This document shows, one piece after another, positions 14,052 to 39,497 of a DNA stretch of 64,000 nucleotides. The notes under the pieces are model-generated. The model saw nothing but the letters and a program-made list of their open reading frames with translations. It ran no database searches and had not been told where the DNA came from. The translations under genes were made by a program, and so were the position numbers. Numbering within the stretch: position 1 is the first letter of the stretch; each line of letters starts with the position of its first letter. Source of the stretch: a phage; the sequence record PZ452579.1. The stretch is one strand, 5' to 3'.

Positions 14052-14081
14052 TTTGTTTTCTCCTCTTGTTTTGATAGGTCT

Positions 14082-14110
14082 ATAATAACATATCCTAAAA
14101 GCATGTACAC
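14082..14110 (-). promoter_or_regulatory. early promoter cassette (PeSL-like)
   Basis: -35 GTGTAC, 17 nt, -10 TATTAT on minus strand. Confidence 0.5.
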
Positions 14111-16389: not shown

Positions 16390-16417
16390 TTTGTTCTCCG
16401 TTTGTTTTGGTAGGACT

Positions 16418-16447
16418 ACTATAACATAGTCCTACCAAGATGTAAAC
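16418..16447 (-). promoter_or_regulatory. early promoter cassette (PeSL-like; perfect dyad GGTAGGACTA/TAGTCCTACC)
   Basis: -35 GTTTAC, 18 nt, -10 TATAGT on minus strand. Confidence 0.55.
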
Positions 16448-23052: not shown

Positions 23053-23382
23053 TTATACTCTAGGCTTTTGAGCTTGTTTGGTATTGGATTCCCATGCGGC
23101 TTTGGTAATTTTGTTAGCGGCATAACCAAAGGCATTAGATAGAACACCTTTAGAGTTGAATACATCCAATCCAATAAGTACACCGGCTGTGTTAAATTTA
23201 GGAGCAAAGTACGCATTAGTTTTAGAAAGAGCTTTTTTCAATTCAGGGTCTTGAACCAAGCCATCAAAAACGCCTTTACTATTTACTTTATATGTTACTT
23301 TGGGATTTTTACCTTCTTCGATAGCAGCTTTCTGTTCCGCAGATAATGTAACTTCAGTGATAAACTCTTGATACGTTTTCAT
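23053..23382 (-). CDS. internal-protein-like, capsid-targeting leader MKTYQEFITE
   Basis: N-terminal 10 aa match T4 IP capsid-targeting sequence; SD AGGA. Confidence 0.7.
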   Translation of the reverse strand: MKTYQEFITEVTLSAEQKAAIEEGKNPKVTYKVNSKGVFDGLVQDPELKKALSKTNAYFAPKFNTAGVLIGLDVFNSKGVLSNAFGYAANKITKAAWESNTKQAQKPRV

Positions 23383-23407
23383 TTTGTTCCTATTGTTTTA
23401 ATTTATG

Positions 23408-23722
23408 TTATTCTTTAGGGAAGTTTTTAGAGTATGCGTCATAAAGTTTATTACCGATGCGACGGAAGACTTTAGCTGCAAAACGGTTTTCAGGGTTTTT
23501 AATCATGATTTGCATCATGTAAGTTCCTGCATCCGAAAGAGCTTCTTCGTAGTACCCATTAATTTCTTTAAGAGTCCTACGTTTACCACCAGGACCATCA
23601 ACAGTAATTTTCCATTTACCTGTAGAAGTGCGGCTCGGTGGCTCAACTTGTTCAATCCAAATATAACCACCTTCAACGCGTTGGTTGGCGGATTCTGCAA
23701 TAAATTCTTTATATGTTTTCAT
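23408..23722 (-). CDS. internal-protein-like, leader MKTYKEFIAE
   Basis: Leader matches T4 IP consensus; 104 aa. Confidence 0.7.
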   Translation of the reverse strand: MKTYKEFIAESANQRVEGGYIWIEQVEPPSRTSTGKWKITVDGPGGKRRTLKEINGYYEEALSDAGTYMMQIMIKNPENRFAAKVFRRIGNKLYDAYSKNFPKE

Positions 23723-23753
23723 TTTTTGTTTCCTTGTTTGTTTTGATAGAGTA

Positions 23754-23783
23754 ATTATACCATATTAATACTTAAGCGTAAAC
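23754..23783 (-). promoter_or_regulatory. early promoter cassette (-35 GTTTAC, 18 nt, -10 TATAAT)
   Basis: Minus strand upstream of 23408..23722. Confidence 0.55.
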
Positions 23784-23786
23784 AAT

Positions 23787-24047
23787 TTAAGCTTTACCGC
23801 CAGAAATAATTCCGAAGTTGTTAAAATCGTATCCAATATCGTCAACATCTACTTTAGGACTTACTACAACATAAGCAATTTCACTACGTTTTGCATAGGT
23901 GTTGATTTCTTTACCATCGCCACCTAAGAAAGAATACCCATTACGTTTTAATGAGCCAAAGTCTTCCGCATCACCAATGAAAGCTTTAACTTTAAATTTG
24001 GGGTCTTTGGCATCTGCTTCAGCTATAAATTCTTGATACATTTTCAT
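23787..24047 (-). CDS. internal-protein-like, leader MKMYQEFIAE
   Basis: Leader matches T4 IP consensus; 86 aa. Confidence 0.7.
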   Translation of the reverse strand: MKMYQEFIAEADAKDPKFKVKAFIGDAEDFGSLKRNGYSFLGGDGKEINTYAKRSEIAYVVVSPKVDVDDIGYDFNNFGIISGGKA

Positions 24048-27480: not shown

Positions 27481-27508
27481 AATATTCTCCTCATGTTTTA
27501 ATAGGACT

Positions 27509-27538
27509 ACTATAACATAATCCTATAATTGTGTAAAC
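27509..27538 (-). promoter_or_regulatory. early promoter cassette (PeSL-like)
   Basis: -35 GTTTAC, 18 nt, -10 TATAGT on minus strand. Confidence 0.55.
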
Positions 27539-28775: not shown

Positions 28776-28803
28776 TGTGGACTCCATTTAATTTGATAGG
28801 ACT

Positions 28804-28833
28804 ACTATAACATAGCCCTATCTTGTTGTAAAC
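28804..28833 (-). promoter_or_regulatory. early promoter cassette (PeSL-like)
   Basis: -35 GTTTAC, 18 nt, -10 TATAGT on minus strand. Confidence 0.55.
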
Positions 28834-34134: not shown

Positions 34135-34211
<77 letters not shown>

Positions 34212-34217
34212 AATATA

Positions 34218-34291
34218 TGACCCAGACCAGATTCGAACTGGTAACCTTTCCCTTATGAGGGGACTGCTGCTAACCATTGAGCTACAGGGCC
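34218..34291 (-). tRNA. tRNA with CAU anticodon (Ile2-like or Met)
   Basis: 5' end and T-arm resemble E. coli tRNA-Ile2; anticodon loop CTCATAA; imperfect acceptor and D stems. Confidence 0.55.
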
Positions 34292-35540: not shown

Positions 35541-35747
35541 TTACTCACCTTTTGCAATTTTATCCATAACAATAGCGATTAAACCGATTAGAAATGCTAC
35601 TACCAATGAGATAGAATTTTCTGTTGTTGTCAGTAGTCCACAAATGAATCCTACAAACATCGAAAAACTAAAAGCCATTGAAGCAATTACTACAGCAACA
35701 TTACGAATCAGTTCAGCGCGTTTCATTTTATTTCTCCATTTACTCAT
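35541..35747 (-). CDS. small membrane protein (68 aa)
   Basis: Two hydrophobic segments. Confidence 0.5.
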   Translation of the reverse strand: MSKWRNKMKRAELIRNVAVVIASMAFSFSMFVGFICGLLTTTENSISLVVAFLIGLIAIVMDKIAKGE

Positions 35748-35762
35748 TTGTTTTGATAGGAC

Positions 35763-35791
35763 TACTATAACATATCCATATAGGCTTGTAT
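35763..35791 (-). promoter_or_regulatory. early promoter cassette (PeSL-like)
   Basis: -35 TATACA, 17 nt, -10 TATAGT on minus strand. Confidence 0.5.
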
Positions 35792-35795
35792 ACCT

Positions 35796-36059
35796 TTATT
35801 TCAAATATATTGCGTATTTTTTATAGCCACCAGGCTCGTGTCGAAGACCTTTATCATTCGCAAAACGTTGAATGTTATTGAACTGATTTTCATCAAGTTC
35901 GGATGTGTCAAATATAAAAAAGTTTCGTTTGTTACCAAGCGTGATATGCGGAGTTAAGTCAATGTTATACAAATTAAGAATATCAGCAATAACCTGATTG
36001 ACTGCTTTGTTAATTTTCACACCAGACGATTCTGAGATGAATTCGTTGAAAGTTTTCAT
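35796..36059 (-). CDS. internal-protein-like, leader MKTFNEFISE
   Basis: Start at second ATG; leader is a variant of IP consensus. Confidence 0.6.
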   Translation of the reverse strand: MKTFNEFISESSGVKINKAVNQVIADILNLYNIDLTPHITLGNKRNFFIFDTSELDENQFNNIQRFANDKGLRHEPGGYKKYAIYLK

Positions 36060-36091
36060 TTTAGGTTCCATTTGGTTGTTTTGATAGGACT

Positions 36092-36121
36092 ACTATAACA
36101 TAGTCCTACCATGATGTAAAC
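36092..36121 (-). promoter_or_regulatory. early promoter cassette (PeSL-like)
   Basis: -35 GTTTAC, 18 nt, -10 TATAGT; dyad TAGGACTA/TAGTCCTA. Confidence 0.55.
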
Positions 36122-36432
36122 TATTTTATGCCTTTAGATGAAATAGTATTCTGGCGTTTGACCCCAGTTTGTGAAAAATCATGGTTATCAATTTGGTCAA
36201 CTCGCATAACACCAAACGCAGATTTAATTTTGGCCTTTGAACCTTTTTTGATACTAATTACCATATAAGTATCATTTTTCTTATATTCGAAATTTGATAC
36301 TTCAACGCCTTGATTAGAAATTGACTTAATAATAGCATTAGCGTATTCATCATCTAACGGGCCGTTAGTGTTAATAACAAAATTTTTATCCGCTTTAGTA
36401 GCTTCCGCGATGAATTCTTGATAGGTTTTCAT
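36121..36432 (-). CDS. internal-protein-like (ipI position), leader MKTYQEFIAE
   Basis: Exact T4 IP leader; 103 aa; adjacent to 57B as ipI is in T4. Confidence 0.7.
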   Translation of the reverse strand: MKTYQEFIAEATKADKNFVINTNGPLDDEYANAIIKSISNQGVEVSNFEYKKNDTYMVISIKKGSKAKIKSAFGVMRVDQIDNHDFSQTGVKRQNTISSKGIK

Positions 36433-36466
36433 TTTATTTCCTTGAGGTTGTTTATTTGATAGGATG

Positions 36467-36496
36467 ATAGTAACACACCATCATCCTTATGTAAAC
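36467..36496 (-). promoter_or_regulatory. early promoter cassette (PeSL-like)
   Basis: -35 GTTTAC, 18 nt, -10 TACTAT; dyad AGGATGATAG. Confidence 0.5.
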
Positions 36497-36509: not shown

Positions 36510-37195
<686 letters not shown>

Positions 37196-37199
37196 TTTA

Positions 37200-37934
37200 T
37201 TACCTTAAGATTTTTTCAATTTTAGAATAAAGCTCTTCTAACGAGCCGTCGTTTGTAATAACTAAGTCGCCTTCTTCAATAGGCAACCCAGCTTCTGTAA
37301 TATGTTTATCAGTGGATTCCGTACCAGAGCGAACCACATGAATAACTGTAGCACCCATCGCTCTAGCGGTTTCCATTTCATGGACTTGGCGTGTATCGGT
37401 TACAACATAGTAATCAAAATCACTTCCAATATAATCCATATAGTTTAATGCAAAAAGTTTAACCCAATACATACGGTCAAATAAATTAACGACAACATCC
37501 GTACCGAGGGCTTGCATAAGACGGCGGATTGACCATGTGTCGTTGATATTATTTATAGCTTCACGCAGGGCTTCATACGGTTTAATATCTAGATATGAAT
37601 ACCTACCTTCTAATGATGATAATACTTTAACATTATTAATTGGTAAATATTGACTTTGTAAATAAATTAGCGCTTCTTCCAATAATTCAATAACATCCAA
37701 CTTATTGAGATTTAATGGTGTTTCACGGTCATATCCAACACCTTCAAAGTATTCATATTTCAACTCGGTGAATACATCAGGGTTTTCGGCATGTCTACGT
37801 CCCCAGGCTATTGCTAGAGCGTCTTTAATCGGATATGCCAATTGGTATTTTACGGATTTAAAGTTTGAATTGATGTAATCAGCAGTAGTGTCTTTACCAC
37901 TACGTTTGATGCCGCTTAAAAAGATTAGCTCCAT
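37200..37934 (-). CDS. 1: dNMP kinase
   Basis: 244 aa; MELIFLSGIKRSGKDTTADYI... P-loop; matches recalled T4 gp1. Confidence 0.9.
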   Translation of the reverse strand: MELIFLSGIKRSGKDTTADYINSNFKSVKYQLAYPIKDALAIAWGRRHAENPDVFTELKYEYFEGVGYDRETPLNLNKLDVIELLEEALIYLQSQYLPINNVKVLSSLEGRYSYLDIKPYEALREAINNINDTWSIRRLMQALGTDVVVNLFDRMYWVKLFALNYMDYIGSDFDYYVVTDTRQVHEMETARAMGATVIHVVRSGTESTDKHITEAGLPIEEGDLVITNDGSLEELYSKIEKILR

Positions 37935-37987: not shown

Positions 37988-38572
37988 TTAACGCAAGGAA
38001 GGGTGTCTAGAAATGGATTTAGATTCGACCGCTTGACGTGGTTGTTGAGATACAATGACTTCGCCATCCTTTTCTATCGTCATATACGCATAGTGAATAG
38101 TTGCTACGCACGTAACGGCAGGGTCGGAGTCTTCAGTGTAACTAAATTCAATTTCGCTCAAATCGGAAATCCATGGTTTATAGAAATTTGCCGTCAAAAC
38201 TACTTCAGTCTTATTGTTGTTTAAAATGTGCAAAGTAACAAACTCAGGACCATCGGAGTGGGCCGTATTATGTCCGGTTATATAGTTATTAGTGCTGAGC
38301 ATCCATTTATACATGTTCATCCAGGACGTCATGTCTTCATCAACTATAAATCGTACAACAAAAGGGTCATATTCAAATGTGGTGCCTGCACGCATTGCAC
38401 GTCCTAACCCCATTGTGCCTGTCACAGTTTCAACAACAGGAATTCTCACACCTGGCAATGGAGCTGTTTGGGCATTGAGCACAAAACCTGAAGTTCGTGT
38501 ACTATCCGGGATATCCACAACAAAGTTTGTTATATTTGTTTGGTTAAAAATCTGTCTCGTTGGACGAGTCAT
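37988..38572 (-). CDS. 3: tail completion/sheath stabilizer gp3
   Basis: Assigned by T4 synteny (1-3-2-4) and C-terminal ...HPSLR; ATG after GTG track start. Confidence 0.7.
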   Translation of the reverse strand: MTRPTRQIFNQTNITNFVVDIPDSTRTSGFVLNAQTAPLPGVRIPVVETVTGTMGLGRAMRAGTTFEYDPFVVRFIVDEDMTSWMNMYKWMLSTNNYITGHNTAHSDGPEFVTLHILNNNKTEVVLTANFYKPWISDLSEIEFSYTEDSDPAVTCVATIHYAYMTIEKDGEVIVSQQPRQAVESKSISRHPSLR

Positions 38573-38675
38573 AAGCACCTCAAAAACGCTTTAATAAAAA
38601 TGCAGTATAATGGTTTTAGGTCTCTTCCATTAATCTGGTTCAACAGAATATCAAGAAGAACGGAAGAGAATAGAA

Positions 38676-39497
38676 TTAAGATTTCCAAACAGTATTCGCA
38701 GAGAAACGTTTTCCTTTTGACATAAACTGCTGAGTAGGTAACATGATTATGTTAGCCCAGTCTTTAGGAGCTATTTCTGTTATTGTTCCTCTAATGTGGC
38801 CTGGCAGGTATGCTTTAATCATTTTGTCAGCACCTTGAAATCCTTTCACCTTGCTCCAGTCTATCTTCAACTTTGTGTTATTAGTAATAGTAGTTGTGCT
38901 AGCATATTGCTTCAGCAATTCTTCAAGAAACTGTTGTCGTGCTTTAGGTGGGATATAGTGCAAGTTTAACCCGTACATCAAATTATGTTTACCTAATCCT
39001 AAATAAATAATCAAAGGATATCGGTCCCAGTATGGCAGAGTATCTTTATGTTTAGCATCATACACGTAAGTATAAATTTTGCCTGGCGCAGGCTTGACTA
39101 CTTTATGACCTTTTACACTTTTCTTAATTGTTTCAACAAACCACTTAGATGATTTGTTGTTTACTGCTGCGCCTTCATTTCTAATCTTTTCTCGTATTGA
39201 ACTGCGAAACGAGTTTATCATCAGAAGTTGACGTTCTTGCTTATTGAGTTTATTTTTAGGTTTAGATTCAAGCGTTTCAATTTTCTGTGCAGTCTTAATA
39301 GATGATGCATATCTAGACATTGCAGATGTAAACGACGAGTATTTTATTCCTTTTGATTCTGCAAATGCTTTTGCAGTGATTCCTTTCTCTTTAGCTTTCT
39401 TGTATTCTAATCCTATCTCAATCCATTTTCTTTCATTCATAGACTGAGCAATCTTAGGGGCTTGTACGCCTTCAGATATAATTTGGAATATGCTCAT
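38676..39497 (-). CDS. 2: DNA end protector gp2
   Basis: 273 aa; T4 gp2 size and synteny. Confidence 0.75.

Follow-up and report, generated by a model that had tools for sequence, protein, structure and literature searches.

Ip7- and Ip9-family genes in the cassette array at the ipI site of an RB69-like T-even phage

Two leader-bearing genes between 57B and tRNA.4

We analyzed a 64,000-nucleotide stretch of phage DNA (sequence record PZ452579.1, referred to below as the window), focusing on two adjacent genes for presumptive internal head proteins (internal proteins, IPs) at the position occupied by ipI in phage T4. These genes had been proposed, with their coordinates and N-terminal leaders, in an earlier reading of the DNA made without database searches (the sequence-only reading), and we found both, on the minus strand. 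The open reading frame (ORF) at 36121-36432 encodes 103 amino acids (aa) and starts with MKTYQEFIAE; the ORF at 35796-36059 encodes 87 aa and starts with MKTFNEFISE. The pair is flanked by a homolog of gene 57B upstream and a homolog of tRNA.4 downstream, ahead of genes for tRNA-Met and tRNA-Arg. The site is indeed that of T4 ipI beside 57B, as the same reading had it: the T4 record has a single ipI between 57B and trna.4. Gene order in the locus is that of T-even phages, and the window DNA is 96-98.5% identical to RB69-like Mosigvirus phages.

On sequence grounds, the upstream ORF (ORF A) is an ortholog of Ip7 and the downstream ORF (ORF B) an ortholog of Ip9, the names being those used in phage RB15. 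Ip7 matches phrog_2667 ('internal head protein', E 7e-39), is 99% identical to ORF156c of RB69 and about 69% identical to RB15 Ip7, and has homologs in 161 phage records. Its leader, coded by 36403-36432, is identical to the IPII/IPIII leader in the T4 record, and the predicted mature protein has 93 aa (10.3 kDa, isoelectric point (pI) 9.5). Ip9 matches phrog_7673 (again 'internal head protein', E 7e-49) and is about 72% identical to RB15 Ip9; matches occur in 182 phage records, and among Mosigvirus records conservation of the 87-aa protein lies at 97-100%. The Ip9 leader, coded by 36030-36059, agrees with MKTYQEFIAE at seven of ten residues and precedes a predicted mature protein of 77 aa (8.9 kDa, pI 9.0). 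The first 10 residues of IPIII are known to suffice for prohead targeting, with leader residues 4 and 7 governing targeting and residues 8 and 10 governing cleavage by the protease gp21 (PMC9026906). At these targeting and processing positions, both proteins have the expected residues, namely Y4 or F4, F7, I8 and E10. Both mature forms would be basic, like IPI* (pI 9.0).

The AlphaFold (AF2) model of Ip7 (predicted local distance difference test score, pLDDT, 74.7) suggests a ferredoxin-like beta-alpha-beta-beta-alpha-beta core at residues 16-81, followed by a low-confidence tail. That of Ip9 (pLDDT 85.5) suggests an alpha-beta-beta-alpha-beta-beta order, with a confident domain and a low-confidence leader. 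Pfam holds no family for Ip7 or Ip9. A sequence search of the PDB, whose chains presumably include T4 IPI*, returned nothing for Ip7 and only chance-level matches for Ip9 (Rtt106 and one other chain, E about 0.06-0.4). Structure searches produced generic ferredoxin-like neighbors only and no functional lead, and a BFVD search produced one unnamed match, uninformative on function.

The comparison with T4 IPI that the sequence-only reading had recommended turned out negative: neither protein matches the IPI of T4 or RB69 beyond the leader, nor any PDB chain. A tblastn search of the window found no homolog of mature IPI, IPII or IPIII, though both IP loci lie inside it. Ip7 and Ip9 nonetheless share with T4 IPI/IPI*, which is injected and inhibits GmrSD CT596, the site, the kind of leader, a similar size and charge and the type of promoter cassette, and presumably also, by analogy, the delivery route and the class of function. 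What sets them apart is the mature domain, which has no detectable sequence similarity to those of IPI/IPI*, Ip2 or Ip3.

Two observations concern the end of Ip7. The C-terminal tail DFSQTGVKRQNTISSKGIK (residues 85-103, window 36121-36177) has very low model confidence, yet many of its positions are invariant in a set of family members sharing 64-95% identity overall. Possibly this tail serves as a binding peptide and acquires order on its target. In RB69, Ip7 (ORF156c, L002 2669-2995) is 5 aa longer than in the window (…GIKYFTTR), the stop codon being changed, and its translation runs into the intergenic promoter element ahead of ipI (compare window 36121-36123).

The features of the locus and its surroundings are as follows, from upstream to downstream:

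38676-39497, minus strand: gp2
37988-38578, minus strand: gp3
37200-37934, minus strand: gene 1, deoxynucleoside monophosphate (dNMP) kinase
36965-37195, minus strand: 57A
36510-36965, minus strand: 57B homolog, Acb1 anti-CBASS family (Pfam PF23474, E 6.5e-59; annotated 57B in RB69 and T4)
36467-36495, minus strand: cassette 1 early-type promoter, with -35 TTTACA (36495-36490), a 17-nt spacer and TG-extended -10 TACTAT (36472-36467)
36461-36487, minus strand: cassette 1 hairpin, AGGATGATGGT / ACTATCATCCT, 11 bp with a 5-nt loop; the 3' arm holds the -10 hexamer
36121-36432, minus strand: Ip7-family internal head protein gene (ORF A), 103 aa, phrog_2667
36092-36120, minus strand: cassette 2 early-type promoter, with -35 TTTACA (36120-36115), a 17-nt spacer and TG-extended -10 TATAGT (36097-36092)
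36085-36108, minus strand: cassette 2 hairpin, TAGGACTA / TAGTCCTA, 8 bp core
35796-36059, minus strand: Ip9-family internal head protein gene (ORF B), 87 aa, phrog_7673
35764-35792, minus strand: cassette 3 half element before the tRNA.4 homolog, with degenerate -35 TATACA, N17 and -10 TATAGT with TG
35541-35726, minus strand: tRNA.4 homolog, 61-aa small hydrophobic protein (phrog_1692, E 1.4e-32; annotated tRNA.4 in RB69 and T4)
after the tRNA.4 homolog, minus strand: tRNA.3 and tRNA.2 homologs, then a 171-aa ORF
34218-34291, minus strand: tRNA-Met
34135-34211, minus strand: tRNA-Arg

The 57B homolog thus forms the conserved upstream flank of the IP cassette array and the tRNA.4 homolog its conserved downstream flank; a close homolog of the latter protein in phage mogra is annotated 'putative membrane protein'. 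The Acb1 family to which 57B belongs comprises anti-CBASS cyclic-nucleotide phosphodiesterases. Since the gene directly upstream of the array matches Acb1 (PF23474) so strongly, the array lies in an anti-defense neighborhood, and the stretch beside 57B/Acb1 may be seen as an anti-defense hotspot.

A six-frame search of the 64 kb for ORFs with the leader motif found only five, each beginning at the motif and all confined to two loci. The second IP locus (window 23053-24047, minus strand) holds the three further leader-bearing ORFs, none of which is homologous to mature T4 IPII or IPIII:

23787-24047, minus strand: ORF of 86 aa, starting with MKMYQEFIAE
23408-23722, minus strand: ORF of 104 aa, starting with MKTYKEFIAE
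23053-23382, minus strand: ORF of 109 aa, starting with MKTYQEFITE

Promoters, hairpins and cassette exchange

Each gene has its own early-type promoter. The sequence-only reading had predicted promoters ending at 36467 and 36092; our scan puts the -10 ends exactly there, and each holds a predicted hairpin. A TG-extended -10 was present in just 3 of the 16 promoter matches, all three in the short gaps before the genes of this locus. The early promoter consensus of T4/PST PeSL cassettes is TTTACW-N17-TAYWAT (PMC4122927). Cassette 1 fits it exactly, cassette 2 with one mismatch (TATAGT) and cassette 3 with two (TATACA, TATAGT). The cassette 1 promoter is identical in RB69 and KAW3E185. That of cassette 2, the best-scoring match of the scan (10/12), has its -35 directly after the Ip7 stop codon and is kept in mogra and KAW3E185. 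As DNA folds, the hairpins of cassettes 1 and 2 reach -8.4 and -7.1 kcal/mol (z -2.25 and -2.32 versus shuffles, respectively); both overlap the spacer and -10 region, that is, they lie inside the promoter.

Identical copies of a 27-nt core lie at 35748-35774 and 36076-36102, and a copy with 70% identity lies at 36451-36477; the 20-nt center of this core occurs 6 times in the window versus 0 expected. An alignment of 13 IP-locus intergenic elements, taken from 6 phages, needs no gap over 47 nt. No variation is seen among them in the TTTAC at the center of the -35, in a portion of the -10 region or in four of the five positions of a downstream ATCAA. The 20-nt core TATAGTAGTCCTATCAAAAC of cassettes 2 and 3, which covers the -10 and the 3' hairpin arm, has four more sites on the minus strand with at most 3 mismatches (14068-14087, 16404-16423, 27495-27514 and 28790-28809); promoters of this family therefore also serve other parts of the early region.

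What lies between 57B and tRNA.4 varies among relatives:

T4: IPI
RB69: Ip7 and IPI
KAW3E185: IPI and Ip9
window, mogra, ESh27 and others: Ip7 and Ip9
RB15: Ip5, Ip9, Ip7 and Ip8

Four arrangements are thus seen among relatives, which bears out the suggestion that this locus belongs to the known hypervariable IP loci (PMC2839356). In RB32, Moon, HMD-9, IME340 and other Tequatrovirus or related phages, ip9 lies upstream of ip7, the reverse of the order in the window. Among the closest counterparts are ESh27, phiE142, mogra and others, which have the same pair of Ip7 and Ip9 genes, at 95.6-98.5% identity over 1.1 kb. In all, 22 records of Mosigvirus or related phages, phage SF among them, match the Ip7+Ip9 locus at 95% identity or more. 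RB15 resembles the window in the site, the two families, the leader and the promoter/hairpin element that precedes every gene and aligns without gaps; it differs in having four cassettes with ip9 before ip7, where the window has two with ip7 before ip9, and the Mosigvirus alleles are about 30% diverged.

Pairwise comparisons locate the exchanges. Against RB69, the window is about 100% identical and falls to about 50% only around 36045-35775: flanks and Ip7 cassette share 97-100% identity with RB69, whose second slot holds a T4-like IPI, not Ip9. Against KAW3E185, the window is identical except around 36425-36110. The boundaries of exchange are the start of the leader-coding sequence and the core formed by the -10 and the 3' hairpin arm. 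From these breakpoints of identity, we conclude that the exchanged unit is the mature-domain coding segment together with the 5' half of the next promoter element. They fit recombination between conserved flanking patches, which is the PeSL model (PMC2839356, PMC4122927). Cassette 3 has the same -10, 3' arm and downstream part as cassette 2, and RB69 has an intact GTTTAC -35 at this place; the 5' half of the element thus appears to travel with the upstream cassette, be it Ip9 or IPI.

PeSL cassettes described in other phages (RB49/phi1, PST/T4, nt-1/KVP40), made up of an early promoter, a stem-loop and a Shine-Dalgarno sequence, likewise bracket ORFs that vary between close relatives (PMC2839356, PMC4122927). 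The window differs in that the predicted hairpin is inside the promoter, across spacer and -10, and not upstream of it. The hairpin is also AT-rich and devoid of a stem with G/C runs, as already noted for T-even IP loci (PMC2839356). Furthermore, the leader-coding sequence provides an additional, second patch of homology.

Two damaged copies were seen among relatives. The 'ip7' of phage OLB35 (P0017) is an in-frame Ip7::Ip9 fusion, the Ip7 part ending in ...KAKIKSSF and the Ip9 part starting with DENQFNN..., and phage FL31 (P0016) has an Ip9 truncated to 54 aa. In view of this fusion and this truncation, Ip7 and Ip9 are dispensable and recombine with each other.

Multi-gene ipI sites with a separate cassette for each gene have been published and deposited in GenBank for about three decades; later papers credit Repoila et al. 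1994 with discovering many Ip genes as well as the promoter/stem-loop elements of the two IP loci (PMC2839356, PMC12373910). The Ip7+Ip9 arrangement, made of two named families, is itself already published or deposited: it is real but ordinary. The locus may serve as a textbook example of how T-even phages diversify injected anti-defense proteins by swapping cassettes, and the finding keeps its value for the question of what Ip7 and Ip9 target and for the leaderless Ip9 relatives described below.

Probable delivery and possible targets of Ip7 and Ip9

We hold it probable that this locus is the ipI-site IP cassette array of an RB69-like (Mosigvirus) T-even phage and that Ip7 and Ip9 are anti-restriction proteins which are packaged, cleaved and injected. 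Each cassette consists of an early promoter that contains the predicted hairpin and is followed by a ribosome-binding site, then a leader-coding segment of 30 conserved nt and finally a variable mature-domain segment. Host sigma-70 polymerase would start transcription of each gene at that gene's own promoter and would also reach the gene by reading through from upstream. The 10-residue leader would direct the protein into the scaffolding core of the prohead, where the prohead protease gp21 would cut after Glu10, between E and A of I-A-E-A in Ip7 and between E and S of I-S-E-S in Ip9. The small basic mature proteins (10.3 and 8.9 kDa) would remain in the head and enter the cell with the DNA. 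Once injected, they would neutralize an early-acting host defense, the likeliest target being a variant of GmrSD/BrxU-type type IV restriction, which would attack the sugar-modified cytosines of these phages. When relatives co-infect, the promoter core and the leader-coding sequence would act as patches of homology through which cassettes may be swapped, deleted, added or reordered.

By analogy with the T4 proteins, packaging, cleavage, injection and such a target are most likely for Ip7 and Ip9, although none of the papers that we found reports Ip7 or Ip9 as a processed head protein that enters the cell along with the DNA. Each of the T4 proteins Ip1, Ip2 and Ip3 inhibits a GmrSD enzyme of its own, and the same work proposes GmrSD variants as the targets of every protein from the two Ip loci (PMC12373910). 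In Mosigvirus, the DNA contains arabinosylated cytosines, and BrxU, an enzyme of the GmrSD family, cuts it (PMC13390438; PMC6024577). Inhibition of GmrSD-type enzymes is thus our leading guess for Ip7 and Ip9; after the 2025 result on Ip1, Ip2 and Ip3, they would be obvious candidates against the type IV enzymes that cut arabinosylated Mosigvirus DNA.

Several results weigh against this interpretation. Leaderless homologs of Ip9 exist in Kagunavirus and Seuratvirus, which leaves room for a target other than a type IV enzyme. The hairpins stand only modestly above shuffles (z about -2.3), and cassette 3 has no hairpin at all (z 0.03): its 3' arm and core are present and the complementary 5' arm is absent. 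The 13 aligned promoter/hairpin elements have no common pairing register, and we thus make no claim of covariation. Lastly, no T4-type late promoter (TATAAATA) is found in the locus, the nearest one on the same strand being at 37557, inside gene 1. Supply of the proteins at the time of head assembly would therefore need continued early-mode transcription or read-through.

The absence of a late promoter from genes with early-type promoters also fits a different role, in which Ip9, and perhaps Ip7, is mainly a cytoplasmic early protein and the leader is secondary or non-essential. The leaderless homologs of Ip9 (44-57% identity) argue in the same direction: in Kagunavirus and Seuratvirus they stand alone as genes of apparently early regions made up of small ORFs, with in-frame stops just upstream of their starts. 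The full-length T4-like members that we recovered, however, keep a recognizable leader, in which position 4 or a neighboring one is aromatic, position 7 is F or Y and the cleavage position is E; in one of them, P0026, the leader is one residue shorter, and exceptions are limited to truncated or fused copies such as P0017. Within T4-like phages, moreover, the Ip9 gene is located in IP loci only. A mainly cytoplasmic role is unlikely on this evidence, and it would not in any case exclude injection: for T4 internal proteins, early synthesis as well as packaging has been reported. Still less probable, in our opinion, is a reading in which at least one of the ORFs makes no functional internal protein, either because Ip9 is started at the ATG at 36071, which would place the leader four residues in and could interfere with targeting, or because the gene is a decaying remnant. 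That ATG is in frame and the longer reading (MEPKMKTF...) is open; the same protein is annotated from MEPK/MESK in database entries, as is RB69 ipI, and the FL31 truncation and OLB35 fusion point to genes that are dispensable and sometimes damaged. Aligned members of the Ip9 family nevertheless begin at an MK(T)-type leader, bar one entry with a 17-residue N-terminal extension, and in RB15, the one Tequatrovirus locus examined, the spacer before ip9 has no extra ATG. Furthermore, the ATG lies in AAATGGAAC, which aligns with the Shine-Dalgarno-bearing AAATGGAG before tRNA.4, and hence falls in the ribosome-binding region for the start at 36059. Such strong conservation across Mosigvirus records and a confidently predicted fold also speak against a remnant.

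The sequence-only reading described the locus as duplicated or expanded. Expanded it is, relative to T4; duplicated is not supported, since the mature parts of the two proteins share no significant similarity. A tandem duplication of one ancestral IP gene followed by divergence, which would make Ip7 and Ip9 distant paralogs, could account for the resemblance of the leaders and for a 34-nt direct repeat (79%) across the start codons. It would also account for a weak local similarity between the mature proteins, 28.6% by BLASTP over 42 aa (Ip7 16-57 versus Ip9 45-86), whose E of 0.004 was obtained in a tiny database of 9 sequences. Both models are four-stranded ferredoxin-like alpha/beta sandwiches, and the similar stretch corresponds to a beta-alpha-beta-beta unit in each. 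When the leaders are trimmed, however, profile-profile comparison of the two families with hhalign is not significant (P 0.078, probability 0.7%), and the order of elements in the models differs, beta-alpha-beta-beta-alpha-beta in Ip7 versus alpha-beta-beta-alpha-beta-beta in Ip9. Each family has its own orthologs and an independent distribution (161 versus 182 phage records), each gene occurs without the other, in RB69 and KAW3E185, and only Ip9 has leaderless relatives outside T4-like phages. As for leader and promoter, they are common to all IP genes, including the unrelated IPI, IPII and IPIII. We thus regard such a duplication as improbable: judged from their residues, Ip7 and Ip9 are unrelated and have only the leader in common.

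The Ip9 domain outside T-even phages

Searches with tblastn and exhaustive HMMER found the mature Ip9 domain outside T4-like phages. Leaderless homologs are gp64 of the Kagunavirus JSSK01 (72 aa, 57% identical; L006 3007-3225) and CDS0075 of the Seuratvirus KS_A3 (74 aa, 44%; L008 2992-3216). The domain is also found near the C-terminus of a 965-aa protein, gp082 of the Kuttervirus allotria (L007 340-3234), and inside an 861-aa relative of that protein, both from Kuttervirus-type phages. Other relatives are small metagenomic phage proteins, and in diverged T4-like phages the domain bears a leader; sequences P0028-P0042 also belong to this set of relatives. A HMMER search with the Ip9 profile against 1.84 billion representatives returned only 18 matches, none of them annotated or joined to a recognizable catalytic domain. 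Arg65 and Gly78 are the sole invariant residues in a joint alignment of the relatives. The genomic context of three distant Ip9-like proteins consists of small-ORF phage regions, with nothing diagnostic of function.

Homology of Ip9 thus extends across phage groups, and the label 'internal head protein' on the siphovirus copies is probably a misnomer. This distribution suggests a proposal that we put forward tentatively and consider rather doubtful: Ip9 may be a widespread small phage domain that T-even phages captured behind a capsid-targeting leader, and not a T4-specific head protein. Several of the groups that carry it (T-evens, Seuratvirus and Kuttervirus) have hypermodified DNA. If such a capture did take place, the PeSL/leader junction could be a general capture site, where cytoplasmic anti-defense genes are turned into pre-packaged, injected ones; Ip9 and Ip7 might then inhibit defenses against hypermodified DNA, for instance GmrSD/BrxU variants acting on arabinosylated cytosine. 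The spread of the Ip9 domain across phages is a side result of this work and may be new. With the leaderless relatives, what the domain does could be studied apart from how it is delivered.

A hexapeptide, TPHITL, is common to Ip9 (window 35946-35963) and to 57B (36621-36638), where it belongs to the catalytic H-x-T region. We considered on this basis that Ip9 might be a 2H-phosphoesterase like 57B/Acb1 and rejected the idea: the second H-x-T/S motif is absent from Ip9, and the histidine is not conserved in the Ip9 family, most members of which read TDYITV. The shared hexapeptide is most likely a coincidence.

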